Of a stretch of 64,000 bases of DNA, positions 787-44,695 are shown one piece after another. The notes under the pieces are model-generated. The model worked only from the letters and a program-made list of their open reading frames with translations, was not told the origin of the DNA and made no database searches. The stretch lies in the NCBI GenBank assembly GCA_020831635.1, contig JAFIGC010000013.1:385-64384 (forward strand). The letters run 5' to 3'. The number at the start of each line of letters is the position of its first letter. The stretch's first letter is position 1. The translations under genes and the position numbers were made by a program. The stretch comes from Verrucomicrobiota bacterium (GTDB lineage Bacteria > Verrucomicrobiota > Kiritimatiellia > SS1-B-03-39 > UBA6053).

Positions 787-3234
787 ATGAAAAACAAAAT
801 TCCGCAATCTTCCATTTTGAGTTTCCGTGCCGTGGCATTGGGCCTTCTCCTTGGCCTGTTTATCGCCGGATTTGCCTATTTCAACGATCAAGTCGTGCAG
901 AGCACGTTTCTGATTGGCAATTTTCTGCCAATTGGGGTTTTCGGGGTGGTGTTGTTGCTGATTTTGCTGGTGAACCCTCTTTTGGTGTCCATCCGGGAAT
1001 CGCTGGCGCTGAAGGGGAGTGAACTGGCCATCATTACCGCCATGGGCTTGGCGGCCTGCGCCTGGCCGGGATCCAATCTGTACAGGACTTCCACGGGAAT
1101 ACTGGCGTTGCCGAACCATCTGATCAACTTTGAAAGCAGTTGGCAGTCCAATCATCTCATGTCCTACGTACCGGGCCTTTCGGACGAACTGGCACAAGGG
1201 CATGTCCGGGACTGGGGCGTATTTGCCCGTGACATCACCAACGCCCAGCAGGATGAAGACAGCCCATTTGGGCGTTTAAAAGCGATGATGACCCCAGTGG
1301 AACGAGGCGTCTTTGAAAGGGCGGCTTCCGCCGAAGCCGTCAGTGCCAATGCGGTCCGACAGATGACCGCGACCCTGAACCGTCTGCTGCGGGAACCCGA
1401 CTTGCCAAGTGCCTTGGGGTTGGAGGAAACCCAAGGCATCCAAGATGAGACCGGCGGCGAGTTTTCCGACGTACAACGTATCAAACGAAACCGGGCCCTG
1501 TTGGTGGCCGCATTTCCGGGCCAAGTCTTGCCGTCTCCCCGTGGAGCGTCGGTGTTGGTGGATGTCCGGGAAAACGAAGATCGCGCCCTGAGTCCTTTGC
1601 TCGAAGGCCGCCCCGGGGAGGAGCGCCTGTCGGTTGCCCGACTCCCCTGGGACGTATGGGGGCCGACCATCGGTTTGTGGGGGACGGTGGTGTTGTCCCT
1701 GGGTCTGGCCACGGTTTGCATGGCCCTGATTGTGCACCGCCAGTGGTCCGGCAATGAACTGCTCTCTTATCCGGTGGTGCGATTCCTCGAGGAAACGCTG
1801 GATCGTCAACCCGGCAAACGCCTGCCGGTGATTTTGCAGAATAAATTGTTCTGGCTGGGGTTTGTGCTCATCATCCTTTTTCACCTGCAAAACGGTTTGG
1901 CCGCTTGGTTTCCCGCCGTTCCAAGCTATCCGGAAACCGTCGATTTAAGTCCGCTGACCCGACTTTTTCCCAACGCCCGGCAGGTGCCCGGTGCGGGCGG
2001 AGTTTTTAATGCCCCCCTGTTTTTTTCCGTGATCGCCTTCGCCTTTTATCTCGATTCGCGGATTTCGCTGTCCTTGGGACTCAGCAACCTGTTTTGGGTC
2101 ATATTCGGCGCGTTCTTAATTGGCAATGGCATCACCATCGGCAACAGCTACATGGGGGCGGAAAACGGAAATCTGTTAAGGTTCGGGGCCTACATCGGTT
2201 TTGCCTGCATGATCCTTTACACGGGCCGCCGTCACTACCGGGAGGCCTTTTTGGGCAGTATCGGGCTGCGTCCGAAAGGGGAGCTTCCCGCATACATTTC
2301 TTGGGCGGGTCGCGGTTTGGCGTTGGGTTCGGTGATTTCCGTGATAGGCATGCACGCGGCCGGTCTCACCTTGTTCTGGGCGATCATGTTCACTGGCGCG
2401 GTCTTGATTATTTTTCTGGTGCTGGGGCGAATCGTGGCCGAAACGGGTGCCTTTTTTCTCCAACCGCAGTGGTTGCCCATCGGGGTGTTCACGGCCTTGT
2501 TCGGCTTTGAAGCCATTGGTCCCACCCAGTATATTGTGATGGCCGTGGCCAGCGCCCTGCTGGCGGGAGATCCTCGCACCACCTTGATGCCTTTTATTCT
2601 CAATGGCTTGAAGCTCGGGGATACGGCGGCCGCCAAAGAGAAAAAAAGCGTCGGTGGCAGGTTAGGACTGCTGCTTTTGGGGATGGTGTTTCTTTCCTTT
2701 TTCGTTGCGGGTGCCGCCACCCTTTGGTTTCAATACAATGAGGGTGTGAGTGGCGACCAGTGGGCCAATCGTTCCTTGCCTTCGATGCCGTTTCAGAATT
2801 TGGATCGCAATATCTCCGAACTGGGTGCCCGAGGCACCTTGTCCGAGGTCACCGCAAACACCGCGCGGGGCCGGATCCCTTTCCCCAACCCGGATAAAGG
2901 GGCGGTGGGGTGGATGCTCGGAGGCATGGGGTTGGTGCTGGTGTTTGCGATCGCCCGCCTTCGCCTGACCTGGTGGCCTTTTCATCCGGTGATCTTTTTA
3001 GTGTGGGGCACCTTTCCCATGGGACGCTTTGGCCTCAGTTTCCTGGTGGGCTGGATGATCAAAGAAGCAGTGATTAAAACCGTGGGCGCCAAAGGCTTTC
3101 ATACCGTGAAACCCCTGATGGTGGGGGTGATTTGCGCGGAAGTCCTTGCCGCCATCTGCTGGGGGATTGTGGCGCTGCTCTATTACCGTTCCACCGGTCT
3201 GCCTCCCATCACGTATCGAGTGTTTCCAGGATGA
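787..3234 (+). CDS. Polytopic membrane protein, family A of the duplicated module (function unknown)
   Basis: 815-aa ORF with ATG at 787. It has many hydrophobic helices with a soluble insertion of roughly 230 aa after the first helices. The C-terminal motif WWPFHP...IKEAVIKTVGAKG...KP is shared with 33535-36393 (FPFHP...IKSLVIKYGGMN...KP). The N-terminus LSFRAVALGLLLG resembles the OPT-family N-terminal pattern. The stop overlaps the next start (ATGA at 3231). Confidence 0.8.
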   Translation: MKNKIPQSSILSFRAVALGLLLGLFIAGFAYFNDQVVQSTFLIGNFLPIGVFGVVLLLILLVNPLLVSIRESLALKGSELAIITAMGLAACAWPGSNLYRTSTGILALPNHLINFESSWQSNHLMSYVPGLSDELAQGHVRDWGVFARDITNAQQDEDSPFGRLKAMMTPVERGVFERAASAEAVSANAVRQMTATLNRLLREPDLPSALGLEETQGIQDETGGEFSDVQRIKRNRALLVAAFPGQVLPSPRGASVLVDVRENEDRALSPLLEGRPGEERLSVARLPWDVWGPTIGLWGTVVLSLGLATVCMALIVHRQWSGNELLSYPVVRFLEETLDRQPGKRLPVILQNKLFWLGFVLIILFHLQNGLAAWFPAVPSYPETVDLSPLTRLFPNARQVPGAGGVFNAPLFFSVIAFAFYLDSRISLSLGLSNLFWVIFGAFLIGNGITIGNSYMGAENGNLLRFGAYIGFACMILYTGRRHYREAFLGSIGLRPKGELPAYISWAGRGLALGSVISVIGMHAAGLTLFWAIMFTGAVLIIFLVLGRIVAETGAFFLQPQWLPIGVFTALFGFEAIGPTQYIVMAVASALLAGDPRTTLMPFILNGLKLGDTAAAKEKKSVGGRLGLLLLGMVFLSFFVAGAATLWFQYNEGVSGDQWANRSLPSMPFQNLDRNISELGARGTLSEVTANTARGRIPFPNPDKGAVGWMLGGMGLVLVFAIARLRLTWWPFHPVIFLVWGTFPMGRFGLSFLVGWMIKEAVIKTVGAKGFHTVKPLMVGVICAEVLAAICWGIVALLYYRSTGLPPITYRVFPG

Positions 3235-4568
3235 TGACAAGCTCCCAAACCCCCATGGACCCGGCATGTCCCTCCACTGGTCAAGAGATCCGTTGGATGG
3301 GCCTCAGGATGCAGGTGCCCCTGGACTGGGAGATACGCCGCCATGGCATCTCCCCGGATATTGGTTCCCTGGTGTTCGTGGATCATCGAACCCAACGCAT
3401 GGAAGTCCGCTGGCAACGTCCCGACAAGGAACCGGATCTGAACCGCACCTTGGAACATGCCATGGACGCGGTCCGAAAGGCACACCCCGATGTGCATATC
3501 TCCCCCAGACTTCCGTCCCGAACCGGTGCTTGGACGGGCTTCGTGTATGATCGGGAATCCAGGGTTTATCGCGCGGTATTGTATGAGAAAGACACCAACG
3601 TGTTGTTGCAGACCACCCTGACGCTGGACGGCAGCCGCGAGGAGACCCACGAGTTCGTCCGCAATCTGCTCAATCATCTGACCCTCACCGAAGCGCCGGA
3701 AAAGGCAACCCACTGGCGGGCCTTCGGCATCGATTGCCGGGTCCCTGCGGACTGGGTATTGCGGGAAGCGGTCGCCAAGCCCATGGATATCCGGCTGAAA
3801 TTCGACTGCGGCACCAAACGCATGCTGTCCAAGCAACGCACGACCGCAGAGGTCCGCCGGCTGGGGATGGTCAAAGACTGGTTCGATGGCGACCTCCACG
3901 GTTTCGCCAAAAGCCGGGCCTTGGGCAACCACCCGCACGTTCTCACCGACAATACGGGAGGCAGGGACGTGTTGCGGGTGGAATCCGACGTGGGCCGGTT
4001 TTTCTTTTTGGGACCCTTGGGGCCGAAAGACCACCAACAGTTGCGGCTTTGGCACGACCCGGACATTAACTCCATCCTGGTGCTCAGTCTGACCAACCCC
4101 CGCATTGCCCGAGTCTCGATGGAGGACATTCAGGTGGAAAGCAGTGTGGATGCGTTTCTTTCCCCCGCCGTTCTCGAAGCCCCGCGCTCGGAAAACCAGC
4201 CCCGTTCCCCTCAAGATGCGCTGTTGGACGCCATCCCCGTGCGCAACGAAGCCGTCACCTTGGAACGCGAAGCCGAGGGGGCGATATTGAGGGCGCCCCT
4301 GCGGCAACGCTGGTGGATGCGTCCTCCGTTCGGGTGGTTTTTTCCTTTTCGAGACACCCGGGGGTTCGGCGTGGATGCCTATGGCATGGAGGTGTGGGAG
4401 GCCTGTGACGGCACCCGGAGCGTCAAGGGGATTTGCGAGCGTTTCGCCAAGGCCCACGCCATCAGTTTCGGAGAGGCGCGGGTGGCCGTCTACCAATTTT
4501 TACAAACCCTCACCAAGCGGGAGCTGATTGTGATTCAAGTCACCCAAGACCCCCGGGAGATTGCATGA
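3231..4568 (+). CDS. Soluble protein with an internally duplicated N-terminal domain and a C-terminal PqqD/RRE-like peptide-binding domain
   Basis: 445 aa from ATG 3231 (the ORF-track start at 3132 overlaps the upstream gene). No TM segment is visible. The motif W-x-x-G-[LI]-x-x-x-VP-x-DW occurs twice (WMGLRMQVPLDW and WRAFGIDCRVPADW). The C-terminus FGVDAYGMEVWEACDGTRSVKGICERFAKAHAISFGEARVAVYQFLQTLTKRELIVI fits the PqqD-family pattern. ATGA overlaps occur at both ends. Confidence 0.6.
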   Translation: MMTSSQTPMDPACPSTGQEIRWMGLRMQVPLDWEIRRHGISPDIGSLVFVDHRTQRMEVRWQRPDKEPDLNRTLEHAMDAVRKAHPDVHISPRLPSRTGAWTGFVYDRESRVYRAVLYEKDTNVLLQTTLTLDGSREETHEFVRNLLNHLTLTEAPEKATHWRAFGIDCRVPADWVLREAVAKPMDIRLKFDCGTKRMLSKQRTTAEVRRLGMVKDWFDGDLHGFAKSRALGNHPHVLTDNTGGRDVLRVESDVGRFFFLGPLGPKDHQQLRLWHDPDINSILVLSLTNPRIARVSMEDIQVESSVDAFLSPAVLEAPRSENQPRSPQDALLDAIPVRNEAVTLEREAEGAILRAPLRQRWWMRPPFGWFFPFRDTRGFGVDAYGMEVWEACDGTRSVKGICERFAKAHAISFGEARVAVYQFLQTLTKRELIVIQVTQDPREIA

Positions 4569-6040
4569 AAGAGATCGTCGCCAAAAATCAAGTGGAATTG
4601 GGATCCGCGCGCTGCATACAACTCGCGCTTTCCGGGATCATGTTCCGCCTGTTTCGATCCTCCATCACCATCGTGATTTTGGGTTTGGCGGTGGCCTTTC
4701 TGGCCCACATGCTGGCCTACAGCGTGATTTCCGGCACCACGGAGCGCGCCATTTGGGCGGAATTGGAGGCGGAACGCAGCCTCGGGGTTCGGTTGCGCCG
4801 CTTGGAAAGTCCGGATGCCTTTGCCTCCCTGCTTCTACAGTTCCAGAAACAGGATGCCCATCGCTTGGCCGAGTACAGCCGCTGGGGCGCGTTGAGTGCG
4901 TCGGAGATGGAGCAGACGCTCCGTCGCGCGGCGTTGGTCGCGGATTTTGAACGCGCCGTGCAAAACTTCACCAACCGGCAACGGGCCATTTTGGCGGGGG
5001 ACCGCAATGCGATCGAGTTGCTGGAATATATCGTATCTCCCGAAGCCCTGAACGCCTTTTTGGAACGCTGTCGGCAAATTGAGGTGAGGAGCCCGTTGGG
5101 AAGCCGCGAAGCGCTGGAGACCCTGGTCACGGTGGAATGGCCCGCATTGCAAGAAGTCCTGCACCGGGTGCGGGAAGGGCATCGCCGCGCGGTCGCCCAA
5201 CTGGAACGGGAACTGGAGGGTCAACGTATTTCCGATGCGCTCATTCAAACTCCAGAGGAGGTCAAGGGTGCCGCGGAGGCCGTTGGTTTTTACACCGCCG
5301 CCTATGATTTCGACCGCTTGGCCGCCTTTGCCCGGGATGCCCGCCATCAACGCCGCGTCGAGGAGTCCATCGGGTCATTGCGCATCCGCCAAAGTCTGGC
5401 CGGTCGTTTGAACGTCCCTCCGGTGGAGATACACAGCCTCCGGGTCATGGAATGGATCGCCGAAAATAAAGATCATGCCGCCGAACTGGATCAACTCTTG
5501 GGGGAAACCGAGGGGGTGGAAGCCATTGGCGCGGACAATCTGTACCGCGTCGCCACCCATTTTCTGAAATTTCGCCGTTTGCAAAGTCTGGTGCCGATCG
5601 CCCCCGATCTGGATGCCGAAGACCGTTTCTTTGGTTTGGATCAAAGCGGACGCTGGCTCATCCTGCTCGCTTTTCTGGTCTGCGTGATCGGGGTGGCCAA
5701 CGCCATGTTGATGTCCGTGACCGAACGCTTTACCGAAATTGCCACCATGAAATGCCTGGGGGCGATGGATAAATTCATTATGATGATGTTTGTCTTCGAG
5801 GCCGCCATTCAGGGGCTGGTCGGAGGAATCTTCGGCGCATTGTTTGGCGTGTTTCTGGCCTGGGTGCGCGGGGTCTCCGAATTTGGAGGCACCCTGGTGC
5901 TTGCCGGGGTGTTCGGCACGGTGTTGCTTTCCGCGCTCCTGGCGCTGACCGTGGGCATCCTGCTGGCGGTGCTTGCGGCGGTGGGGCCCTCCTTTGCCGC
6001 CGCCCGCCTCGCGCCGATGGAAGCCATGCGTGTTGAATAA
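4565..6040 (+). CDS. FtsX/MacB-type ABC permease (small partner, copy 1) with a long helical loop between TM1 and TM2
   Basis: 491 aa from ATG 4565 (ATGA overlap). TM1 is SSITIVILGLAVAFLAHMLAY, followed by about 335 aa rich in Arg, Glu, Leu and Ala. The C-terminal FtsX domain reads WLILLAFLVCVIGVANAMLMSVTERFTEIATMKCLGAMDKFIMMMFVFEAAIQGLVGGIFG and ends ARLAPMEAMRVE. Confidence 0.8.
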   Translation: MKEIVAKNQVELGSARCIQLALSGIMFRLFRSSITIVILGLAVAFLAHMLAYSVISGTTERAIWAELEAERSLGVRLRRLESPDAFASLLLQFQKQDAHRLAEYSRWGALSASEMEQTLRRAALVADFERAVQNFTNRQRAILAGDRNAIELLEYIVSPEALNAFLERCRQIEVRSPLGSREALETLVTVEWPALQEVLHRVREGHRRAVAQLERELEGQRISDALIQTPEEVKGAAEAVGFYTAAYDFDRLAAFARDARHQRRVEESIGSLRIRQSLAGRLNVPPVEIHSLRVMEWIAENKDHAAELDQLLGETEGVEAIGADNLYRVATHFLKFRRLQSLVPIAPDLDAEDRFFGLDQSGRWLILLAFLVCVIGVANAMLMSVTERFTEIATMKCLGAMDKFIMMMFVFEAAIQGLVGGIFGALFGVFLAWVRGVSEFGGTLVLAGVFGTVLLSALLALTVGILLAVLAAVGPSFAAARLAPMEAMRVE

Positions 6041-6051
6041 TCCCCTATGGA

Positions 6052-6837
6052 ATGTACCCGATGATCATGACTGCTGAAAACGAAAAGCCAAAACAAACCC
6101 CGCCGGATCGGGCGGTGATCGTGCGGACCCTGGACCTGGAGAAGGTCTATGGCAGCGGCGAGGCCGCCACCTACGCGCTCAACGGGGTGGACAGCACCAT
6201 CATGCGGGGCGAACTCATTGCCATCATGGGCCCTTCCGGTTCCGGCAAAAGCACCTATTTCAACATGATCGGCGCCCTCGACGCCCCCACAAAGGGGCGC
6301 ATTCTCATTGACGAGGTGGATGTGGCCCAACTGTCCGCCTCCGAACTGGCCTTTTTGCGGTGCCGGAAAATCGGCTATATTTTCCAATCTTACAACCTCA
6401 TCCGCTACATGACCGCCCTCGAAAACGTGACCGTGCCCATGACTTTTTCCGGAACCACCCCCGAGGACGCCCGCCGACGGGGCATGGAGCTGTTGGACCT
6501 GGTGGGGCTGGGCGACCGTTGGCAGCACCGCCCCATCGAAATGTCAGGCGGACAGCAGCAACGGGTGGCCATCGCCCGCTCTCTGGCCAATCAACCCCAA
6601 ATCCTGCTGGCCGACGAACCCACCGCCAACCTCGATTTTCAAACCGGGGAAGAGGTGCTTGAAATTCTGCGCAAAATCAACCAGGAACGCGGGGTGACGG
6701 TGATTTGCTCCACCCACGATCACCGTCTGCTCTACCTCTGCAACCGCATCATGTGGATTCGGGACGGCAAGGTCGAACGGGTCGAAAAACGCGAAAACAT
6801 GACCATTAAAACCGGGAAAATCGGAGGAGAATCCTGA
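6052..6837 (+). CDS. ABC transporter ATP-binding protein, MacB/LolD/FtsE-like (class I of the module)
   Basis: Walker [10 protein letters not shown], signature [13 protein letters not shown], Walker [14 protein letters not shown]-loop STHDH. It shares LRCRKIGYIFQSYN and ERGVTVICSTHDH with 44696-45520. Confidence 0.9.
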   Translation: MYPMIMTAENEKPKQTPPDRAVIVRTLDLEKVYGSGEAATYALNGVDSTIMRGELIAIMGPSGSGKSTYFNMIGALDAPTKGRILIDEVDVAQLSASELAFLRCRKIGYIFQSYNLIRYMTALENVTVPMTFSGTTPEDARRRGMELLDLVGLGDRWQHRPIEMSGGQQQRVAIARSLANQPQILLADEPTANLDFQTGEEVLEILRKINQERGVTVICSTHDHRLLYLCNRIMWIRDGKVERVEKRENMTIKTGKIGGES

Positions 6838-9800
6838 TGTCGAAGTCTCTTCAATCCCGTATCCTCGTTCACGCGCTTTTCGCGTCGCTTGGCCTGTTCG
6901 GCACGGTCGCCCGCGCCGTGGAGATCGACGAAAGCGTTTTTCGGAGCGATTTCCAAGCGCTGACCGCATTCGATCACCGCCTCCCCGGCAGTGAAGGACA
7001 ACGGGAAACCGCCCGGTTCCTCGAATCCCGTCTGCGGGAAATTGGCATCGATGAGGTGCACACCCTCCGCTTTGAAACCTGGTATCCCGAATTGCAGCGG
7101 TCGGAAATGGTGGTGGACGGGGCGGGCATTCCCATTTTTCCCCTGCGCCCCAATCTGGTGATCTGGCCCAACACCCCCGAGGAGGGTTTGACCGCGCCGC
7201 TGTTGTACGTGGGCAAAGGGGATATACAGGATTACGGTGCCCGGAATCCTGAAGGCCGCATCGTGCTCATGGACTATGCCGCAAGTGAAAACTGGCGGGT
7301 GGCCTTTTCCCTGGGTGCCAAGGCGGTGGTGTTTGTCGGAGAACCCGGGGACGCTCCCACTGCGCCGCTCCACGTTCCCGCCCCGGTGAATTTCCTCCGT
7401 TTTTATGTGGACCGCTCCGATCTGCCCGCCGATCCCGGCGAACTGGAGGGGCGCGAAGTCAGTCTGTTCTCACGGGTCAAATGGCAATCCAGACCGGATC
7501 AGGTGATCTACGGACGGGTGCATGGCCGCGATTCCGAGCAGTTGGAACCCATTCTGCTCGCCGCCCATTACGATTCATTTGGCAATGTCCCCCACCGCTC
7601 GCCCGCAGCCAGGGGCGCGGCCAACACTGCGCTGGTGCTGCAGGCGGCCCGGCATTTTGCAGCAAACACCCCCCAACGGGATGTCGCGTTTCTACTGACC
7701 AGTTCCCGTGCCTACAATCACCAGGGCGCTCGCTATTTTTATGAGGCCCTCACGATTCCCGACGCACAGTTGAACGACGTCTATAATGCCCGTCTTCGGG
7801 AGGAATCGGAGATCCAAGGCGCGTTGGATTTGTTGCTGTCGGAGGGCTTGCGAGCGGATCCCCGGGCGGGACACGGGGATTTGCTCGCCCGCCAGATCTT
7901 TCAGGAAGCCGAGTTCATGAACGCCGATTTGACCGCGGCCCTCCAACGCAGGCGGCTGACGGTGGACCGAATGGACGATCCGGAGATGGAGGCGCTTCGC
8001 TTGGAAATCGAAGAGAAGGTCGTGCGCCGAACGGTCATTGACGACATCAGACGGGCCCTCTTCGGCAACCGCTTTTTGGAAGTCTACGCGCAATTGGAAG
8101 CCGTGCGAAGCGGGGAGGCGAAGATGGAGGACCTTGCCTTGACCTCATTGACGGGAGATGCGGAGGTCGACCGACGCATTCTCACCGAAATCATTCCCTC
8201 TGTATTGGAGGAGCTTCTGGAATTGACTCGCGCCCGTTTCGAGGGACGGCTCGCCGAATTGAACGAAGAGCGCACCTATTGGGAAAACACCCAATCCCTG
8301 CGCGCGGAAGGCCGGGCCTCCGGAGAGTCTCCGGCCGGTCGCATGCATCTGCATGTCAGTTTCAATCTGGGCGATGCCAGTTCCCGATGGGGGGTAGTGG
8401 TGGGCGATCCCGTGGAGGGCATGAGCAACATGGGGGTTCAGTCCGGCGCCGATGCCCCCGGGCTTTATGTCCGCTTGTTGTCCCAACTCGGGGAGATCTC
8501 CCGAAACCGGGGCGATATTTTCCAACTCAACACCCGCACGCTCACCGATACGCTCTTCGGTCCCAGTTTTGTAGGCGAGCCTTATACCAGCAGTGCCAAA
8601 ACCGCCGGAGATTATGGGTTTCACAACATTTCCCTTATGACGGAAAACGATTCCCGTCTTCGCGACGGACATCCCGGGGACACCCCGGAGGCCCTCCGGA
8701 TCGAGACCTTTCTCAATCAGGGCCGTGAAGCCCTCTCGCTTGTCGAGGGTATGCTCGACACCCCCAATCTCGCGGTCACCCGCCCGATTGCCAGAATGGT
8801 GACCAGCAAGTACTACGATTGGCGAAACGGACGTTCCTGGGGAGATTTTGTCTCTCGCACCGTGGTGGGGGGGCTGGCCGAAAGCCGACCCGCCGAAAAC
8901 GCACTGATCGCACATTGGCCCACGGGCGGGGGCAGTGACAGCGGCCACTGGGCCAATATTGAAAAAAGCGGCATTTACCGGGACTACATGCCCTTTGGCT
9001 TGCAACGCGCGAATTATTTCGGACGATTTTCCATGGTGGGCCAGAGAAGCGTACAGGCAAGGCTGGCCCTTTTCAGCGCGTATTTCGATGAGCGGGGGGA
9101 TCTGGAGGCCATTTCCAACCAACGCTCCCAACTGATTCCCCGCATGGCCGCCAGCATCCGCTTGACCCTATTTCAGGCCCGCGGGCATGCCATTCTGACC
9201 AATCCCGGACATCAGACCTTTCCCGACAGCCTCAACATCATGAAAGGCACCACCAACTTTGCCTTTCCAAACGACCGGGTGCTTTGGGGAACCGTGAATG
9301 ACGTCAGTTTCGCCTATCTGGCCGAGCGGGATTTTGCAGGCGGTTTGAAGTTTTTCCAGCGGTTGGGTCCGGTGTTGATGGCCCTGCCCGGCCGGGACCC
9401 GGTGGCGGATGGGGGAATTCCCACCGGCGATTTGCTCAGTCCGCCGAGGGTAAGCGGATTTTCCGCCGAAAATCTGTGGGCGCTCAACGAATCCCGTCTG
9501 TCCACCATGCGTCAACGCGGGGTCAGCCGCACCGATCTGGAAACCTACCACAGCCGGGCCCTGGCCGCCCGCGAGCAGGCCAACGAGGCCACGTCCTTGG
9601 CCGAGGAGGAGTCCCTGCGTCTCTCAAGCGCCTCCATCTCCCACCGATTGCACGAACCGCTCCGCAGTTCCATGGATGACCTGGTCACTGCCATCATACT
9701 CTTGCTGCTGCTGACGCTGCCCTTTGCCTTTGCCATGGAACGTCTACTGGTGGGCGCCACTTCCATTTATGGTCGACTGAGCGGATTCTGCGTGTTTTTC

Positions 9801-11759
9801 ATCCTGACCTTCGGTTTGTTGTATTTTCTGCACCCCGGATTCGCCATTGCCTCGGCCCCCATGATCATTTTCCTGGCCTTCACCGTATTGGGGCTTTCCG
9901 CCATGGTCATCCAGATGCTCTTGCGCCGTTTCAAACAGGAATTGAAGATGCTGCAGGGGCAGGGGGTGCAGGCCCACGACGCCGAAGTCTCCCGGGCGGG
10001 CACCACTCTGGCCGCCATCGGCATGGGCATGTCCACCATGCGCCGCCGCCCCACTCGAACCTTCCTCACCGCCATCACCGTGGTGGCCCTGACTTTCACC
10101 ATCCTCTGTTTCGCCTCCTTCACCCGGGAAATGGGGGTTCGCGCCACTTATTTGGGACCCAGCCCGGAAGATCAGCCCGACGGCGTGCTCGTACGCACCC
10201 TCAATTACGCCCCTTTGCCCAACGGACAACGCGAATTGCTGTTGCGCTACCATGACGGGGAATCCGTGCTCACCAGCCGTTGGTGGCTGCGGCGCCAGAA
10301 TGTCGAAAGTCCGCGAATTTTCATCACCAATCCCGCCAATGGAAATTCCGTGGAGCAGGAGGCCATGATCGGCTTTGATGTCGACGAACTCCGCCGCTGG
10401 CCCGCGTTGCGGGAGGTGGCGGGCCGCGAGCCCGAGCAGGCTCGGTTTATGCGGGATATCCAGGAGAACAAACTGTTTCTCCCCCCGTTTGTCATGGAAC
10501 TCCTGGAGGTGGAACCCGGGGACCCCGTGATCGTCAAAGGGCGCGAAATGGTGGTGGCCGAGCCTCTGGACCTCAATCGTCTGCAACGCCTCAACGGCAT
10601 GGATCTTGAGTCCTTGATTCCCCTCGACAGCCGTCAGGTCGATGCCGATGCCATGGCTCCGACCACGGAGGCCGATATCTTGAATCTCGATGCGGAAGTC
10701 GAACAGAACTTCATTCGCCTCGGGGTGGGGGAAATCTCCATGACCTCCAACGCGATGATCCGGGAATTGGGCGGCAAACCCCACATCATGACCCTGTATC
10801 CCGCCGAAACCGTGAATGCCCGCGAATTGGGGCAAACCTTGGCCGCCATCGTGTCCTCTCCCGTGTGGGTGGTCAGCGAGATCGGCGTGGAGCGCATGGT
10901 GCTCACCCATTTGACCCAGATCTCCGGGGTATTCGCCATCGCCATTCCCCTGTTTCTGGGGGGGCTCATCATCTTCGGCACCCTGCTCGGATCGATCAGC
11001 GACCGCGAAAAGGAAATTTACACCTTCTCCGCCCTGGGGCTGGGCCCTTCGCACGTGGGCATGCTCTTCTTCGCCGAAGCCGGGGTTTACGCCGTGGTCG
11101 GGGGGATGGGCGGACAGTTGATCGCGCAAATCATCGCCTGGATCGCGTCGGTGCTGGCCAACCGGGGGATCATCGATCCGGTTTCCATCAATTTCTCCTC
11201 CACCAATTCGCTGTTTGCCATCGGGTTGGTGATGCTGCTGGTGCTGGTCTCCTCCCTTTATCCCGCCTATCGCGCCTCCAAAAGCGCCAACCCCGGGCTC
11301 GCCCGCGACTGGAGCATGCCCGATCCGGATAACGATGTCATCGACCTCACCTTCCCCTTCACCGTCTCCGCCTATGACATCACCGGGGTGGTCAGCTTCC
11401 TGGCTGAACATTTCCGCAGCTTCGACGATGCCGGTTTCGGGAAATTCGCCACCACCGTGACCGAGATTCGGCGAAACGAAGGCGGCAACCTCGAAATCCG
11501 ATCCGAACTGGCCCTGTCGCCCTTCGACCTGGGCGTGACCGAAGAACTGTTGTTGGCCTCCCGTCCCTCCTCGATCGAAGGCGTCGACGAAGTGCATGTC
11601 CGCATCAAGCGCCTCAGCGGCGCCGAGAACGACTGGGTTCGCGGCACCCGGGTGTTTCTCAAGGAACTGCGCACCCAATTCCTGGTCTGGCGCACCCTGT
11701 CGGACGAGCGAATCGAGTCCTACCGCCACGCCACCTTTCAAGAACTGGGGGAGGTCTAA
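6837..11759 (+). CDS. Giant FtsX/MacB-type permease fused to a degenerate PA/M28 peptidase-like ectodomain (copy 1)
   Basis: 1640 aa; the ATG at 6837 overlaps the upstream stop (TGATG). Signal anchor is ILVHALFASLGLFGTVARA. PA-like segment is GRIVLMDYAASENWRVAFSLGAKAVVFVGE. The M28-like scaffold AHYDS...ARGAANTAL...FLLTSSRAYNHQGARYF lacks the GADDN and EE metal and catalytic residues. A helical insert and a TM cluster follow, then a MacB-type TM1 (RRRPTRTFLTAITVVALTFTILCFA), a second periplasmic domain, and an FtsX domain (SDREKEIYTFSALGLGPSHVGMLFFAEAGVYAVVGGMGG). A soluble C-terminal tail of about 150 aa completes the protein. Confidence 0.75.
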   Translation: MSKSLQSRILVHALFASLGLFGTVARAVEIDESVFRSDFQALTAFDHRLPGSEGQRETARFLESRLREIGIDEVHTLRFETWYPELQRSEMVVDGAGIPIFPLRPNLVIWPNTPEEGLTAPLLYVGKGDIQDYGARNPEGRIVLMDYAASENWRVAFSLGAKAVVFVGEPGDAPTAPLHVPAPVNFLRFYVDRSDLPADPGELEGREVSLFSRVKWQSRPDQVIYGRVHGRDSEQLEPILLAAHYDSFGNVPHRSPAARGAANTALVLQAARHFAANTPQRDVAFLLTSSRAYNHQGARYFYEALTIPDAQLNDVYNARLREESEIQGALDLLLSEGLRADPRAGHGDLLARQIFQEAEFMNADLTAALQRRRLTVDRMDDPEMEALRLEIEEKVVRRTVIDDIRRALFGNRFLEVYAQLEAVRSGEAKMEDLALTSLTGDAEVDRRILTEIIPSVLEELLELTRARFEGRLAELNEERTYWENTQSLRAEGRASGESPAGRMHLHVSFNLGDASSRWGVVVGDPVEGMSNMGVQSGADAPGLYVRLLSQLGEISRNRGDIFQLNTRTLTDTLFGPSFVGEPYTSSAKTAGDYGFHNISLMTENDSRLRDGHPGDTPEALRIETFLNQGREALSLVEGMLDTPNLAVTRPIARMVTSKYYDWRNGRSWGDFVSRTVVGGLAESRPAENALIAHWPTGGGSDSGHWANIEKSGIYRDYMPFGLQRANYFGRFSMVGQRSVQARLALFSAYFDERGDLEAISNQRSQLIPRMAASIRLTLFQARGHAILTNPGHQTFPDSLNIMKGTTNFAFPNDRVLWGTVNDVSFAYLAERDFAGGLKFFQRLGPVLMALPGRDPVADGGIPTGDLLSPPRVSGFSAENLWALNESRLSTMRQRGVSRTDLETYHSRALAAREQANEATSLAEEESLRLSSASISHRLHEPLRSSMDDLVTAIILLLLLTLPFAFAMERLLVGATSIYGRLSGFCVFFILTFGLLYFLHPGFAIASAPMIIFLAFTVLGLSAMVIQMLLRRFKQELKMLQGQGVQAHDAEVSRAGTTLAAIGMGMSTMRRRPTRTFLTAITVVALTFTILCFASFTREMGVRATYLGPSPEDQPDGVLVRTLNYAPLPNGQRELLLRYHDGESVLTSRWWLRRQNVESPRIFITNPANGNSVEQEAMIGFDVDELRRWPALREVAGREPEQARFMRDIQENKLFLPPFVMELLEVEPGDPVIVKGREMVVAEPLDLNRLQRLNGMDLESLIPLDSRQVDADAMAPTTEADILNLDAEVEQNFIRLGVGEISMTSNAMIRELGGKPHIMTLYPAETVNARELGQTLAAIVSSPVWVVSEIGVERMVLTHLTQISGVFAIAIPLFLGGLIIFGTLLGSISDREKEIYTFSALGLGPSHVGMLFFAEAGVYAVVGGMGGQLIAQIIAWIASVLANRGIIDPVSINFSSTNSLFAIGLVMLLVLVSSLYPAYRASKSANPGLARDWSMPDPDNDVIDLTFPFTVSAYDITGVVSFLAEHFRSFDDAGFGKFATTVTEIRRNEGGNLEIRSELALSPFDLGVTEELLLASRPSSIEGVDEVHVRIKRLSGAENDWVRGTRVFLKELRTQFLVWRTLSDERIESYRHATFQELGEV

Positions 11760-11802
11760 ACCATGACATGCCTCTTTTCACCCATCAACCCCTCCATCTG
11801 CC

Positions 11803-13890
11803 ATGAGTGATTCCACCTCCAACACATCCCCCCCCCCGAAGAAACTCCGCAAGGAGCGCGGAGTCGACAAGGAATTCGAGATTTTCCGCGACCAGATGCG
11901 TCCGCCGAAGCATTTCGACGAAGGTTTCTCCTGGGAATCCTTTTTCGGGGCCCTGTTTATCGGCGCGGTGATGGTGCCCGGAGCCATTTACATGACCCTG
12001 CTGGCCGGGGAGTCCATCGGCCCCGCCGCCCAGTGGGTCACCCTGATTCTGTTTTTGGAAGTGGCCCGCCGGGCCAACCGCGACATTCCCAACGCCCAGA
12101 TTTTTACCCTCTTTTACATTTCCGGGGCCCTCATGGCCACCGCCAGCGGTTCCGGCGGCGACTTTCACGGCGGACTGCAAACCCTCTACAATCAATTTTT
12201 CGTGCAATCCGACGCCGCCCGCGCCGCCGGCATCGCCGATCAAATCCCCTCCTGGGTGGTGCCCTCGGATCCCGCCGTGCTCGAAACCCGATCCCTGTTC
12301 CGCATCGAGTGGCTCGCGCCCCTCGGCCTGATTGTGTTCACCATGATTCTGGGACGCATCGACAGCATGATCATCGGCTACGGTCTGTTTCGGCTCACCA
12401 GTGACATCGAAAAGCTGCCTTTCCCCCTGGCCCCCGTGGGTGCCCAGGGCATTCTCGCGCTCTCCGAAGAGCAGAAAGGGCACGAAATTTCCGAGGACAG
12501 CAATCGAGAGGGGGTGTCGAAATGGCGAATGTTCTCCATTGGGTCGGTGATCGGACTGATCTTCGGATTTTTGTATCTGGGAATCCCCACCATTACCGGG
12601 GCCCTGCTCGCGGAACCCATTACCCTCATTCCGCTGCCCTTCGTGGACTTCACCCCGGACACCGCCGCCTATATTCCCGCCGCCGCCGTGGGATTGGCCT
12701 TTGATCTCGGGTTTGTCATCGTGGGCATGGTCCTGCCTTTCTGGGCCATGGTGGGGTCTTTCCTTGGGTTGCTGATTACCCTCATCCTCAATCCCATCCT
12801 CTATCATACCGGGGTGCTGACCTCCTGGAATCCGGGAGACAGCCTGCAGGAGACCTTTTACAAAGGAAACATCGACTTTTATTTCAGTTTCTCCATCGGG
12901 ATCGCCCTCTCCATTGCCATTGCCGGGATTGTGAGCATCGTCCTCAAAACCCGAAAAGAAAAGGCGAGGAAGGCAAAGGATGAAAATCCGCTCTCCCGCT
13001 CGGCCTACGCGATTCCCGAAGGGCGCGGGGACATTCGCGCCATCTGGGTATTCGCCACCTACCTGATTGCCTGCAGCCTCTACATTGGCGTGTCCATGTT
13101 TCTGCTCTACGTCACCGATGGCAGCATTTTCTGGCCCGTGGTCTGGGTCATGCTGTTTTACGCCTTCGTGTTCACCCCGTTCATCAGCTACATGACCGCC
13201 CGCATGGAGGGGATTGCCGGACAGGTGGTCACCATTCCCTTCGTGCGCGAAGCCTGCTTCATTCTCTCCGGTTATTCCGGGGTGGCGGTCTGGTTTTTGC
13301 CCATTCCCCTCCACAACTATGGCCAAATGACCGTGTTCTACCGCCAGTGCGAACTCACCGGCACCAAATTCACCTCCATTTGGAAATCCGAGGTGCTGTT
13401 GATGCCCATCATTCTCGGGTTCAGTCTGTTCTTCGCCCACATGATTTGGCAGATGGGCGACATCCCCGGCCCGAACTTCCCCTTTGCCCAAGAGTGGTGG
13501 GAAGTCACCGCCGCCCAGAAGTCGCTGATCTTCTCCTCCACCATGGGCGGATTCACCGAATTCGAGCAGGCCCTCAATCCCGCCTACATCGGCTGGGGAT
13601 TGGGCTTGGGCTGTCTCGCCTTCGGGGTCATGGGTTACTTTGCCCTCCCCGTATTCCTCATTTACGGCGTGGTGCGCGGACTCAACCAAACCCTGCCCTT
13701 CATGGTGATTCCGCAATTCCTCGGCGCCATGATCGGCCGCCTCTATTTCCAGCGCAAATTCGGCGCCAAAAAATGGCGGCAGATGATTCCGGTGCTTTTC
13801 GCCGGCTTCAGTTGCGGCATGGGGCTGATCGCCGTGTTCACCCTCGGATTCGTCTTCCTCAAGGGAAGCGTCCTCACCCTCCCGTTTTAA
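11803..13890 (+). CDS. Polytopic membrane protein, family B of the duplicated module (possible distant OPT-like transporter)
   Basis: 695 aa with about 14-16 hydrophobic segments. It is a clear paralog of 41966-44050; shared strings include MSD..., GF(S/T)W..., LPFPLAP, ARMxGIAGQ and CELT(G/R)TK(F/L)TSI. The N-terminal GFSWESFFGALFIGAVMVPG and the LPFPLAPVGAQG motif resemble OPT-family patterns (ELTxRAxxxG; LxFPSGxA). Confidence 0.6.
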   Translation: MSDSTSNTSPPPKKLRKERGVDKEFEIFRDQMRPPKHFDEGFSWESFFGALFIGAVMVPGAIYMTLLAGESIGPAAQWVTLILFLEVARRANRDIPNAQIFTLFYISGALMATASGSGGDFHGGLQTLYNQFFVQSDAARAAGIADQIPSWVVPSDPAVLETRSLFRIEWLAPLGLIVFTMILGRIDSMIIGYGLFRLTSDIEKLPFPLAPVGAQGILALSEEQKGHEISEDSNREGVSKWRMFSIGSVIGLIFGFLYLGIPTITGALLAEPITLIPLPFVDFTPDTAAYIPAAAVGLAFDLGFVIVGMVLPFWAMVGSFLGLLITLILNPILYHTGVLTSWNPGDSLQETFYKGNIDFYFSFSIGIALSIAIAGIVSIVLKTRKEKARKAKDENPLSRSAYAIPEGRGDIRAIWVFATYLIACSLYIGVSMFLLYVTDGSIFWPVVWVMLFYAFVFTPFISYMTARMEGIAGQVVTIPFVREACFILSGYSGVAVWFLPIPLHNYGQMTVFYRQCELTGTKFTSIWKSEVLLMPIILGFSLFFAHMIWQMGDIPGPNFPFAQEWWEVTAAQKSLIFSSTMGGFTEFEQALNPAYIGWGLGLGCLAFGVMGYFALPVFLIYGVVRGLNQTLPFMVIPQFLGAMIGRLYFQRKFGAKKWRQMIPVLFAGFSCGMGLIAVFTLGFVFLKGSVLTLPF

Positions 13891-13917
13891 CCCAAGCCTT
13901 GCAACGCCTCCACGAAC

Positions 13918-14697
13918 ATGAGTGAAGAACCACCCCAAGCCCAATCAGCCCCGCCCTCGGGCGCCACCACCACGCCCATCGTGCAAGTATGCGGGGTCTC
14001 CAAGATCTATCGCCTCCGCGAGGAAACCGTGTATGCCTTGAAAAAGGTGGATCTCACCATCTACCAAGGGGAATATCTCTCCATCATGGGTCCGTCCGGT
14101 TCCGGAAAATCGACCCTCTTCAACATCGTAGGCGCTTTGGACAAAGCCTCGGAAGGGTATGCCCAGATCGGCGACCTGCGTCTCACCGAATTGAGCCCCA
14201 GCCAGCTCTCACACGTCCGGTGCAACTATATCGGCTACGTCTTCCAAGCCTTCAACCTCATTCCCTCCCTCAGCGCCCTCCGCAATGTTTCCCTGCCGCG
14301 CATTTTCATGGGGGCGAGCCCCGAGGAGGCGGATGCCAAAGCCGCCGAAGTGCTGGAATCCGTTGGACTGGGGCACCGTCTCACCCACACCCCCGACGAA
14401 CTCTCCGGCGGACAACAGCAACGCGTGGCCATCGCCCGGGCCTTGATCAACGAACCCGTGATCATCCTCGCCGACGAGCCCACCGCCAACCTCGACCTCA
14501 ACACCGGCTCCGACGTGATCAAGATTCTCAAGAATCTTTCCGTCGAAAAAGGGGTGACCATCATCACCGCCACCCACGACCACAAAATGCTCAGCCAATC
14601 CGACCGCGTCGTCCGCATCCGCGAAGGCGAAATCGAGGCCATCCAAAACCGCGACGAACTCGAAATCGAAGAAGGCACGATCGAGTTTTCGCATTGA
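13918..14697 (+). CDS. ABC transporter ATP-binding protein, MacB/LolD/FtsE-like (class II of the module)
   Basis: Walker [41 protein letters not shown]. It shares [16 protein letters not shown], SALRNVxLP and ATHDH with 32798-33538. Confidence 0.9.
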   Translation: MSEEPPQAQSAPPSGATTTPIVQVCGVSKIYRLREETVYALKKVDLTIYQGEYLSIMGPSGSGKSTLFNIVGALDKASEGYAQIGDLRLTELSPSQLSHVRCNYIGYVFQAFNLIPSLSALRNVSLPRIFMGASPEEADAKAAEVLESVGLGHRLTHTPDELSGGQQQRVAIARALINEPVIILADEPTANLDLNTGSDVIKILKNLSVEKGVTIITATHDHKMLSQSDRVVRIREGEIEAIQNRDELEIEEGTIEFSH

Positions 14698-14844
14698 TCC
14701 GACACGTGGAAGGTCGGCGGGAAGTTAGCCACCAAACGGCATCCAACCTGCATAAAATCAGCGGACCAGTCCATGCATCGTCCGAAAATTCCCTTGACCC
14801 ACGAGGAATTTTTCCGCAGGGTCTTTTTCAACAAGGAGCCCTTT

Positions 14845-15894
14845 ATGATCCGTATATCCTGTTTGGTTGTTTTGCTTTCCGGTCTGATTTGCGTTCAGGG
14901 CGCGGAAATGTTGACCCGAAGCTATGTCATCGGGCAAATTCCGGTTTTTCATGAGCAGCCCCATGGAGGGGGTGGGGGCTTCGGGGATGCTTTTGGAGGG
15001 GAGCCTGTCGTTGGCCGAGGCGATGTTTCCCCGCGTCGTCCCCGGGCGGATGAATCCGACCTCCCTTGGGCCCGCCGAACCGCCAATCCGGAATTTCTCC
15101 AGCAATATGTGACCCATCACCTCGGCGTGGAATTTCCGGAGGGCAGTTGGCTGCGGTATCAACGGGCCGGACATGTCCTGCACATGCACAACACCGAGGA
15201 CAATCACGCCTTTATGAAATTCGGGCTCATCAGCCATCGTTTGCTTGCTTATCAGGTTGCCCTCACCCTTCGCATGGTTCGCTTTGATGACGCGGTGATT
15301 GAAGCCTTGGAACGAAACCACCCCGCCGGCATCCCCGACCGGCTTTTGGTCGATCTCTGGCGCGAGGGAGAAGGAGAGGTTCTGTCCAGCCAAAGCCTCA
15401 AAACCATCAATGGCGTGAATGCCATTATTCACTGTGTGGAAGAATTCATTTATCCGACGCATATGAGGACCACGTCTGAAAAGAAGGCGTCCGGAGCCGC
15501 GGAAAATGAGAATCCGGAAAAACATCCTCCGGTTTATGGGGGACACGAAACGATGCAAATCGGGGCAATTTTCAACATTACCCCAACGGTTTCCGCGGAT
15601 ATGCAAACGGTGAACCTGATGTTGCTTCCTGAAACGACCCAACTCAAGGGCGACAATCCCCTGCATCCGCCGGAACTGCAGCCGATGACCCCGATCTTCC
15701 ATTCCATCAACCTCACCACCGCCTTGGTGGTTCAGTCCGGGTCCACCTTGGTGGCCGGACAAAGCAGCGACTTGGTGCCGGGCTCCTGGATTGTCATTTT
15801 CGTGGGCGCGCAACTGGTGGACACGAAAGGCGAGCCCATCGAACTTCCGCTGACCCCGCCCGAAGCGAATGCCGGTGAGGAGGTTCGGCCATGA
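14845..15894 (+). CDS. Secreted protein with secretin-like N-domain and short secretin-core-like C-terminus
   Basis: Start chosen at ATG 14845, which follows AAGGAG at 14832-14837 and gives the signal peptide MIRISCLVVLLSGLICVQGAE. The C-terminal GAIFNITPTVSADMQTVNLMLLPETTQL...PIFHSINLTTALVVQSGSTLVAGQ fits the secretin core pattern (G..l.vtP.v..d...i.l...pe.s...P.f..r...t.v.v.dG.t.v.gG). It is a paralog of the next gene. Confidence 0.5.
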   Translation: MIRISCLVVLLSGLICVQGAEMLTRSYVIGQIPVFHEQPHGGGGGFGDAFGGEPVVGRGDVSPRRPRADESDLPWARRTANPEFLQQYVTHHLGVEFPEGSWLRYQRAGHVLHMHNTEDNHAFMKFGLISHRLLAYQVALTLRMVRFDDAVIEALERNHPAGIPDRLLVDLWREGEGEVLSSQSLKTINGVNAIIHCVEEFIYPTHMRTTSEKKASGAAENENPEKHPPVYGGHETMQIGAIFNITPTVSADMQTVNLMLLPETTQLKGDNPLHPPELQPMTPIFHSINLTTALVVQSGSTLVAGQSSDLVPGSWIVIFVGAQLVDTKGEPIELPLTPPEANAGEEVRP

Positions 15895-17544: not shown

Positions 17545-17622
17545 TGGGGTGAGTAACGGGATTTGAACCCGCGGCCTCCAGTGCCACAAACTGGCGCTCT
17601 AACCAACTGAGCTATACCCACC
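17545..17622 (-). tRNA. tRNA-His (anticodon GTG), with encoded G-1 and 3-prime CCA
   Basis: The reverse complement is GGTGGGTATAGCTCAGTTGGTTAGAGCGCCAGTTTGTGGCACTGGAGGCCGCGGGTTCAAATCCCGTTACTCACCCCA. Acceptor stem is GTGGGTA/TACTCAC, D stem GCTC/GAGC, anticodon stem CCAGT/ACTGG with loop TTGTGGC, and T arm GCGGG-TTCAAAT-CCCGT. The extra 5-prime G opposite C73 is typical of tRNA-His. Confidence 0.95.
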
Positions 17623-17666: not shown

Positions 17667-17757
17667 AGAAAAAAAACGGAATTTTCCCGAAGGTTCGCGA
17701 GTTGTTCGTGAATCGGGTTTGCCTTTGTGTGTGGCTTGCATATGATAACGGGTGTCT

Positions 17758-22015: not shown

Positions 22016-22049
22016 TGCGCCAACCGTTTGCCTTGGAAAGTTTTCGTTT

Positions 22050-23252: not shown

Positions 23253-23260
23253 AGTTCCGA

Positions 23261-30210: not shown

Positions 30211-30330
30211 AAACCGGCATTATTTTCAACCAATGTGTTTTGGAGCTTGTCGAAGGGGGAGAAGGTTTGTTAGTGTTTTTTTGATTTAGATTTGAACAAA
30301 CCCCGCAAATCGGGGTAGGATGAATTGATT

Positions 30331-44691: not shown

Positions 44692-44695
44692 TCCA

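Follow-up and report, generated by a model that had tools for sequence, protein, structure and literature searches.

Organization of the locus

We analysed a 64,000-nucleotide (nt) stretch of a Verrucomicrobiota genome, hereafter the window, which corresponds to positions 385–64,384 of the forward strand of contig JAFIGC010000013.1 (assembly GCA_020831635.1); all coordinates are counted from its first letter. According to the list of open reading frames (ORFs) and their translations, a run of seven genes, all on the plus strand, extends from 787 to 14697. The genes encode parts of known families in a combination that is uncharacterised, of the ATP-binding cassette (ABC) kind, type VII, and in all probability they specify one functional unit.

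The run begins with g1 (787–3234), coding for a polytopic membrane protein of 815 amino acids with DUF6785 and DUF6784 domains and a predicted OPT/Yellow-Stripe-like fold. It is followed by g2 (3231–4568; 445 amino acids), a soluble protein in which an N-terminal region, g2N, is fused to a PqqD domain, and by g3 (4565–6040; 491 amino acids), a small FtsX/MacB-type permease. The product of g4 (6052–6837; 261 amino acids) is a LolD/MacB-like ABC ATPase, which we assign to the "g4 class". The largest gene, g5 (6837–11759; 1640 amino acids), encodes a giant FtsX permease with a PA/M28-like ectodomain. A second polytopic membrane protein, from what appears to be a divergent OPT-superfamily branch, is encoded by g6 (11803–13890; 695 amino acids), and a second LolD/MacB-like ATPase, of the "g7 class", by g7 (13918–14697; 259 amino acids).

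Stop and start codons overlap as ATGA between g1 and g2 (3231–3234) and between g2 and g3 (4565–4568), and as TGATG between g4 and g5 (6835–6839); the other junctions have gaps of 11, 43 and 27 nt. The seven co-directional genes with these overlaps, and remaining gaps of less than 45 nt, had been reported in a preliminary description of this DNA, and both are borne out by direct reading of the sequence. A consensus scan for promoters and terminators gave no convincing candidate within the run, and Rfam no riboswitch or other RNA element upstream of it. The preliminary description stopped at 14697; the co-directional run goes on with two secretin-domain genes.

Conservation across genomes

A contig scan with one genome per species found a g6 relative in at least 351 species. 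The best 80 loci were examined, and their gene order was read by tblastn of all nine window proteins. These loci belong to Verrucomicrobiota, Planctomycetota (Phycisphaerae, Brocadiaceae and Planctomycetaceae), Lentisphaerota, Kiritimatiellota, Polyangiales, Anaerolineales and Chitinivibrionales, and one homologue was also found in Spirochaetes; the closest relatives are Puniceicoccaceae-like. The module is spread over at least seven phyla with a fixed order. The succession g2N-PqqD-g3-g4-g5-g6-g7 occurs in about 60 of the 80 loci, practically all those with sufficient flanking sequence, the exceptions being two lone g6 paralogues (L005 and L025) and one locus, L038, in which g5 and g6 alone were detected. 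Conservation of the neighbourhood in genomes of the Planctomycetes-Verrucomicrobia-Chlamydiae group and beyond had been chosen beforehand as the test on which the proposed gene set could fall, and it proved strong among the 80 loci. The two lone g6-family genes (about 61% identical), from Phycisphaera mikurensis (L005) and a member of the Phycisphaeraceae (L025), have no other module gene within 10 kb; in P. mikurensis the gene is followed by one for an 821-residue protein without a Pfam domain.

The position of g1 is less constant: of 50 informative loci, 33 have it as the adjacent upstream gene on the same strand and four have it downstream, and in 13 it is not in view. Exact start/stop overlaps of 4 or 1 nt are found at 38 of 53 PqqD/g3 junctions, 39 of 60 g4/g5 junctions and 34 of 77 g5/g6 junctions. 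The g7 gene always comes after g6, with an overlap in one of 74 cases and a median gap of 23 nt. Across phyla, g6 proteins remain 49–87% identical. Clustering of the flanking ORFs of at least 60 amino acids in the 80 loci identified no further conserved gene, be it for membrane-fusion proteins, outer-membrane factors, regulators, enzymes or hydrolases, and there is no conserved flanking ORF of 18–70 amino acids in them either; the set is thus self-contained.

These data bear on whether the genes encode one machine at all, or a mere cluster of two ABC systems and two OPT-type transporters that are independent of each other. The varying position of g1, sometimes not in view, and the g6 paralogues that stand without a module would fit such a cluster. 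It is nevertheless very improbable, given that order and composition are kept over at least 7 phyla, that start/stop overlaps connect the giant permease gene with an ATPase gene on one side and with the OPT-like gene on the other, and that a shuffled second module in the window, described below, keeps the same six types of part.

Two FtsX permeases of different size

The preliminary description had proposed two FtsX-type permeases, one small and one a 1640-residue fusion, and the Pfam FtsX family indeed matches both g3 (PF02687, 9.7e-15) and g5 (2.1e-10). In g3, the first transmembrane (TM) helix is followed by a segment of about 320 residues up to TM2 that matches no known domain, and then by a three-helix FtsX domain. 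When g3 was compared with the Protein Data Bank (PDB) by phmmer, YtrF, LolF, MacB, LolC/E and FtsX were retrieved, with coverage restricted to residues 344–491.

The g5 protein is far more elaborate. A signal peptide (residues 1–27) leads into the PA/M28-like pseudo-peptidase (residues 26–306; nt 6912–7754), which Pfam matches with Peptidase_M28 (6e-6). About 600 residues without assignment come next, then three extra TM helices (residues ~940–1025; nt 9654–9911), a MacB-like module composed of TM1 and a periplasmic domain (residues ~1094–1363; nt 10116–10925), the FtsX domain (residues 1366–1482; nt 10932–11282) and a cytoplasmic C-terminal alpha/beta domain (residues ~1501–1637; nt 11337–11747). 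The layout of a type VII permease, with TM1, an extracytoplasmic domain and a C-terminal three-helix FtsX domain, is therefore present in g5 as it is in g3. The two FtsX domains are homologous (hhalign probability 98%), and each protein has exactly one. We also considered g5 as a duplicated FtsX permease, which would imply two ABC machines, and rejected this, as hhalign detected no FtsX signal in the TM block of residues 940–1025.

An AlphaFold2 model of g5 residues 903–1640 has a predicted local distance difference test score (pLDDT) of 82.7. Its Foldseek matches are LolC/E, the pneumococcal MacB-like Spr0694-0695, HrtB, MacB, YtrF and FtsX, and the isolated periplasmic region of Escherichia coli MacB (5c59) is matched with a probability of 0.99. 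The C-terminal domain, of about 140 residues, is highly conserved (68% mean column identity) and has no sequence match in the PDB or in Pfam. Its secondary-structure elements follow the order beta-alpha-beta4-alpha-alpha. Foldseek also returned local matches of g5, about 150 residues long, to START/Bet v1/SRPBCC proteins (probability up to 0.99, E 0.02–0.05), the aligned region not being reported; going by the order of elements, we place these matches in the C-terminal domain, which is thus probably START/Bet v1-like.

Residues 903–1528 of g5 (nt 9543–11420) match two PADLOC models, CARF_m8--CARF_LolE_TM (1e-42) and CARF_m8--CARF_Beta-galactosidase_LolE_TM (1e-18). It follows that a census of CARF proteins has already recorded the g5 family, and the name of the second model suggests that there is also a form whose ectodomain resembles beta-galactosidase. 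Read literally, the model name and the 1e-42 match would make the module an anti-phage defence effector with a CARF sensor. This is hardly credible: the top 50 fold matches include no CARF or Rossmann-type sensor, the match falls on the TM block together with the MacB-like periplasmic domain, and in its order of elements the C-terminal domain is not Rossmann-like. Furthermore, the flanks contain no recurring CRISPR or other defence genes, and the FtsX domain apart, no other module protein matches PADLOC. We consider the defence reading unsupported by both fold search and gene context.

The g5 ectodomain is a pseudo-peptidase

In a profile search of the PDB, g5 residues 26–306 match PA-domain aminopeptidases, namely 2ek8 (3e-10) and YwaD (6hc6, 1e-8). 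Profiles of the N-terminus also give weak matches to Nicalin and Nicastrin (E 0.04–0.05), and one g5 homologue, P0286, carries the Nicastrin Pfam domain. Active M28 peptidases hold their co-catalytic zinc ions with a His, a bridging Asp, a Glu, an Asp or Glu and a second His, and use a further Glu for catalysis. Across 61 g5 homologues, the position of the first zinc-binding His is occupied by Asn, Pro, His, Ala or Asp. The bridging Asp, part of GADDN in the canonical enzymes, is Ala in 52 of the 61 and never Asp; it lies inside a conserved A-R-x-A-A-N motif. The EE motif is absent from the window g5, as read directly from its sequence. Although the M28 fold is supported, the zinc ligands of an active M28 peptidase are thus not found among the 61 homologues.

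Residues near the lost zinc site, Asp246, Pro252, Arg259 and Asn263, are conserved in the family. With the ligands lost in all 61 homologues and their neighbours retained, the loss of catalysis must be old and maintained. The degenerate M28 pseudo-peptidase that had been proposed for g5 is upheld by the PDB profile matches and the missing ligands alike. M28-fold proteins without zinc, such as nicastrin, are receptors.

Two ancient classes of ATPase

Both g4 and g7 are ABC ATPases (ABC_tran, 1.7e-32 and 4.5e-32, respectively) and they are 48% identical to each other. Against g4, the LolD, MacB and FtsE models reach 1e-59 to 1e-65 and stay under their equivalog cut-offs; for both proteins the best match in NCBIfam is LolD. 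The Walker A and B motifs, the Q-loop, the signature and the H-loop are kept intact throughout 60 g4 orthologues and 64 g7 orthologues, and g4 proteins of different phyla are 60–88% identical. The ATPases of the second module each match best at the g7 or the g4 position of other loci; since both classes are retained there, they must be old and both have been kept. The two ATPase types of the preliminary description are therefore real as anciently separated orthologous classes; they are not different types of ABC protein, both being LolD/MacB-like.

Two probable OPT-fold membrane proteins

A database entry identical to g1 exists, annotated as hypothetical, from a Verrucomicrobia metagenome-assembled genome. 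In Pfam, g1 matches DUF6785 (4.6e-74) and DUF6784 (4.3e-17), with no sequence match to OPT (PF03169). Its AlphaFold2 model, calculated with 39 homologues, is confident (pLDDT 93.3, predicted TM-score 0.92). The top Foldseek match in the PDB is barley YS1 (7wst/7wsr; E 5e-7, probability 1.0, TMt 0.65), which is also the sole significant one, all others having E>0.03. Barley Yellow Stripe 1 is the solved representative of the OPT/YSL superfamily, so the confident model predicts an OPT/YSL fold for g1.

For g6 there are more than 2500 homologues, with 58–87% identity for the best 120 of the listing, and some are annotated as "peptide transporter". OPT (PF03169) is matched by six of 14 aligned homologues, the best at 3.6e-10, and these Pfam matches of family members suggest that g6 belongs to the OPT superfamily as a divergent branch. 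A motif, R-x-x-S-x-x-E-x-L-x-[YF]-P, is common to g1 and g6, and BLAST aligns the two with an E-value of 0.004. If g1 has the OPT/YSL fold and the g6 family belongs to OPT by Pfam, the module contains two different OPT-fold proteins. OPT-like helices had been proposed for the locus, together with two separate membrane protein families; the former hold for the g6 family, whereas g1, the proposed "family A", is not an unrelated protein, as by its model and the YS1 match it too would have the OPT/YSL fold. Known OPT/YSL proteins are proton-coupled importers that work alone.

Of the hidden Markov models with which the preliminary description proposed to check the gene set, FtsX, ABC_tran, M28 and PqqD match window proteins; MacB_PCD, PA and OPT do not, and the corresponding assignments are backed by PDB profile, fold or family-level matches.

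The PqqD protein and its partner

The C-terminal domain of g2 (residues 377–433; nt 4359–4529) is PqqD-like, or similar to the recognition elements (RREs) of ribosomally synthesized and post-translationally modified peptide (RiPP) systems (Pfam, 1.3e-8), and g2 also weakly matches the model of the lasso-peptide PqqD chaperone. The N-terminal region g2N, of about 340 residues, matches no Pfam family. In 48 of 51 loci, g2N (about 300 amino acids) and PqqD (about 130 amino acids) are encoded by separate adjacent genes; the ancestral module therefore had eight genes. Fusion of the two is confined to the window genome and the three closest loci (L008–L010), and g2 is a lineage-specific fusion. The PqqD-like soluble protein of the preliminary description thus has a genuine PqqD domain, but it is not a single ancestral gene product.

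An exhaustive search gave 405 cluster representatives of g2N, nearly all of them stand-alone proteins of 280–340 amino acids. The few g2N relatives of 420–445 amino acids that were scanned are again g2N-PqqD fusions, 29–45% identical to the window g2N. This repeated fusion argues for joint working of the two proteins. In three further loci, g2N and PqqD lie in one reading frame with one stop codon between them (L041, 1048–2395; L044, 1418–2798; L075, 1245–2625), and in a fourth (L085, 1485–2826) they are in frame and separated by 24 nt. These loci could represent recent fission or an intermediate of fusion; stop-codon readthrough is also possible.

PqqD and RRE domains bind peptides. Unlike known PqqD proteins and RREs, to which its C-terminal domain is similar, g2 has as its constant partner the 300-residue g2N, which belongs to no Pfam family. 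Near PqqD, the flanks of the 80 loci contain no conserved gene for a precursor peptide, for a radical-SAM or cyclase enzyme, or for a protease. Of the components that make up a RiPP cluster, an RRE with a precursor and modifying enzymes, the domain is thus present, with no conserved small ORF or enzyme gene beside it.

Peptide-related domains in three kinds of component (PqqD, M28 and OPT), and the presence among the top structural matches of g5 of the Streptococcus pneumoniae MacB-like transporter 5xu1, which is implicated in peptide resistance, could point to resistance against antimicrobial peptides. The ectodomain would sense or bind a peptide antibiotic, the ABC engine would clear it from the surface of the membrane in the manner of BceAB or Spr0693-0695, and the OPT-fold proteins would import it for degradation. 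A linked two-component system or regulator, typical of Bce-type modules, is missing, and the very high conservation across phyla (60–88% for g4, 49–87% for g6) is more typical of a housekeeping function; we regard resistance as quite improbable.

A second module in the window

By tblastn, blastp and Pfam, a diverged paralogous module with a shuffled order was identified at 32798–45520 on the plus strand. It consists of a g7-class ATPase, a DUF6785/DUF6784 protein of 952 amino acids, a giant FtsX protein of 1859 amino acids, a g6-like protein of 694 amino acids (about 35% identical to g6), a minimal FtsX permease of about 212 amino acids without ectodomain, and a g4-class ATPase, in this order and all on the plus strand. 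The genes for g2N and PqqD are absent. The same order recurs on a metagenome contig, L088, and in part also in L089. The invariant core is accordingly formed by two OPT-fold proteins, a giant and a small FtsX permease and two ATPases, the PqqD pair being accessory.

Kept in the 1859-residue protein are a PA-like stretch, a pseudo-M28 motif of degenerate form, GANAAAN, and also the C-terminal domain; two LysM domains have been gained. With LysM present in this giant protein and not in g5, the two modules differ in the ligand-binding domains of the ectodomain. A small permease without any ectodomain fits the role of a heterodimer partner better than that of an independent machine.

Neighbouring genes

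The first secretin-domain gene (14773–15894, plus strand; 373 amino acids; PF00263, 4e-10) starts after a gap of 75 nt behind g7, and the second (15891–16862, plus strand; 323 amino acids; PF00263, 1e-6) has an ATGA overlap with the first. The two paralogues are 32% identical and comprise the secretin C-domain only. Secretin genes next to the module are absent from all 83 other loci; they are lineage-specific and lie outside the conserved module. The pair may be an outer-membrane partner in the window lineage, or may be unrelated.

With secretins at its 3' end and a PqqD domain among its products, the window module invites comparison with an export machine. In such a machine, PqqD and g2N would recognise a peptide or lipopeptide in the manner of an RRE and deliver it to the OPT-fold proteins for translocation, the ABC engine would expel it from the periplasmic side, and it would here leave through the adjacent secretins. 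MacB-type engines do act on periplasmic substrates, as MacB does on enterotoxin STII, and a START-like cytoplasmic domain could hold hydrophobic cargo. We nevertheless consider export unlikely. The secretins are unique to the window genome; a conserved precursor of 18–70 amino acids or longer, a modifying enzyme, a membrane-fusion protein and an outer-membrane factor are all lacking in the 80 loci; proteins of the OPT family are known as importers; and the second module has no PqqD.

Beyond the secretin genes lie a DUF2007 gene on the opposite strand, a tRNA gene (17548–17621, minus strand), situated between the module and murG, and then the murG-murC-ddl-ftsQ-ftsA-ftsZ tail of the division and cell wall (dcw) cluster. 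A strong terminator-like hairpin is found beside the tRNA gene (17540–17518, minus strand). Genes for the cell wall and for division are unusually frequent in the window: it contains, in addition to the dcw tail (17752–24469), an Amidase_2 N-acetylmuramoyl-L-alanine amidase gene (28562–29797) and genes for RodA and PBP2 (51354–54270), and both modules lie among these. The sole Pfam signal of a minus-strand ORF of 1309 amino acids (24472–28401) is weak (E 2.8e-4) and comes from the heparinase II/III-like C-terminal domain. Three proteins with prepilin-type N-terminal methylation motifs are encoded on the plus strand immediately 5' of the second module (30325–31107, 31111–31794 and 31791–32657). 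These pilin genes, and an ORF of 164 amino acids upstream of the module, are beside the module in no other locus, and no division or peptidoglycan gene occurs within 10 kb of it in the 83 other loci. We consequently set aside such linkage, whether to dcw and peptidoglycan genes or to those for pilins and secretins, as a feature of the window genome only.

The cell-wall genes around both modules, from murG to ftsZ with Amidase_2, RodA and PBP2, would nonetheless suit a regulator of wall remodelling comparable to FtsEX, in which ATP hydrolysis would switch the pseudo-enzyme ectodomain and thereby turn on or place a peptidoglycan hydrolase whose gene lies elsewhere, while the OPT-fold proteins recover the peptides set free. 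FtsEX-EnvC sets a precedent, as there a type VII engine drives a degenerate enzyme-like activator, and the LysM domains of the paralogous giant protein point in the same direction. In the 83 other loci, however, division and peptidoglycan genes are missing from the surrounding 10 kb, and in the window a tRNA gene and an opposite-strand gene intervene between module and murG. The FtsX and FtsE equivalog scores are far below the cut-offs, and the first module has no peptidoglycan-binding domain, so that we think wall remodelling distinctly unlikely.

Discussion

Pfam, NCBIfam and PADLOC offer generic or DUF names only for the module proteins, and full-text searches of the literature retrieved no description of DUF6785/DUF6784 or of such ABC-OPT-PqqD or nicastrin-M28-FtsX sets. 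That the genes do not make up an already characterised system, as first suggested, is consistent with this lack of any assignment in profile libraries or literature. The engines of MacB, LolCDE and FtsEX use ATP to move extracytoplasmic domains (mechanotransmission), with no translocation of solute through the bilayer, and each of them resembles the module in part.

LolCDE comes close in having two different FtsX-fold permeases with one extracytoplasmic domain each and LolD-type ATPases, and LolC and LolE are the best structural matches of g5. It differs in having one ATPase gene instead of two, and it is without a giant ectodomain, an extra TM block, a cytoplasmic C-terminal domain and OPT-fold or PqqD partners; the Lol equivalog cut-offs lie well above the scores of g3 (38 against 362 bits), g4 (221 against 308 bits) and g7 (216 against 308 bits). 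With MacAB-TolC the module shares an FtsX-fold permease with a periplasmic domain and a MacB-like ATPase. In contrast to MacB, its ATPases are not fused to a permease and Pfam MacB_PCD gives no match; nor is an adjacent HlyD-family adaptor or TolC-like exit duct conserved in the 80 loci. FtsEX-EnvC and FtsEX-PcsB are similar in that an ATP-driven type VII engine sets in motion an extracytoplasmic partner that is non-catalytic or regulatory, whereas the module has its pseudo-enzyme, of M28 type rather than LytM or CHAP, in one chain with the permease. The FtsX models score 25–28 bits against cut-offs of 225–255, the FtsE model 199 and 188 bits against 265, and linkage to division genes is absent from the other loci.

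Transporters of the OPT/YSL superfamily (TC 2.A.67; YS1, 7wst) are alike in that the g1 model superposes on YS1 and g6 homologues match Pfam OPT. They differ from the module, where two divergent OPT-fold proteins share an operon with an ABC engine and sequence similarity to canonical OPT proteins is marginal. Nicastrin in gamma-secretase and Nicalin in the endoplasmic-reticulum BOS complex likewise have a zinc-less M28-fold ectodomain and are non-catalytic subunits of membrane complexes. They are eukaryotic, single-pass proteins, not borne on an ABC permease, and with the similarity at the edge of detection we claim common descent no further than the M28 fold.

From these comparisons we propose, tentatively as a whole, a scheme that combines an ABC engine, OPT-fold proteins, a pseudo-peptidase receptor and PqqD. 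Most economically, the products of g1 to g7 would form one assembly in the cytoplasmic membrane with a type VII engine of the MacB/LolCDE kind. In it, g3 and g5 would contribute one FtsX domain each, most likely as a heterodimer in the style of LolC/LolE, and g4 and g7 would form the nucleotide-binding dimer. Binding and hydrolysis of ATP would move the large non-catalytic ectodomain of g5, which may serve as a nicastrin-like receptor and capture a peptide-containing ligand from the envelope or from outside. The ectodomain would then hand its ligand to the g1/g6 pair of OPT-fold proteins, or gate them, and transport would most likely be directed inwards. On the cytoplasmic side, the g2N-PqqD pair might bind a peptide or a tail of the machine itself, and the START-like C-terminal domain of g5 might provide a second ligand-binding or regulatory site. 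We infer the shared complex, the heterodimer arrangement, the class of ligand and the direction of transport from this combination of parts, and likewise an action on peptides or peptidoglycan, as had been suggested earlier.

A more specific version is a hybrid machine in which the type VII engine is obligatorily coupled to an OPT/YSL pair and a nicastrin-like receptor, with mechanotransmission gating or feeding a proton-coupled permease. We know of no characterised system that couples ATP-driven mechanotransmission to subunits with a secondary-transporter fold, and regard this obligatory coupling as possible but doubtful.

Several observations weigh against the proposed scheme. OPT importers need no ATPase, so the ABC-OPT coupling is conjecture, and interaction of the module products is predicted from their conserved context. 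The g1 gene is not in view in 13 of the 50 informative loci, and g2N and PqqD are missing from the second module; neither g1 nor the PqqD pair can therefore be strictly obligatory. The window g6 itself has no Pfam match (E<0.1), OPT included, and no PDB sequence match. Direct homology between g1 and g6 was not significant in two profile-profile runs and was not retained, so that the two are linked by fold and Pfam only. The START-like matches of the g5 C-terminal domain are weak and local. Finally, nothing linked to the module hints at its substrate: neither a riboswitch nor a regulator gene nor one for catabolism was found there.

Type VII ABC systems such as Lol, MacB, FtsEX and Bce are central to envelope building and antibiotic resistance, and each newly understood partner of this type has shown a new use of mechanotransmission. 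The module described here is nearly unchanged in hundreds of hard-to-study species among the planctomycetes, verrucomicrobia, lentisphaerae and polyangia. If its parts form one complex, a primary ATPase engine would be linked to secondary-transporter folds, nicastrin-type receptors would have a bacterial counterpart, and a role would be assigned to DUF6785, DUF6784, g2N and the "peptide transporter" family of g6.

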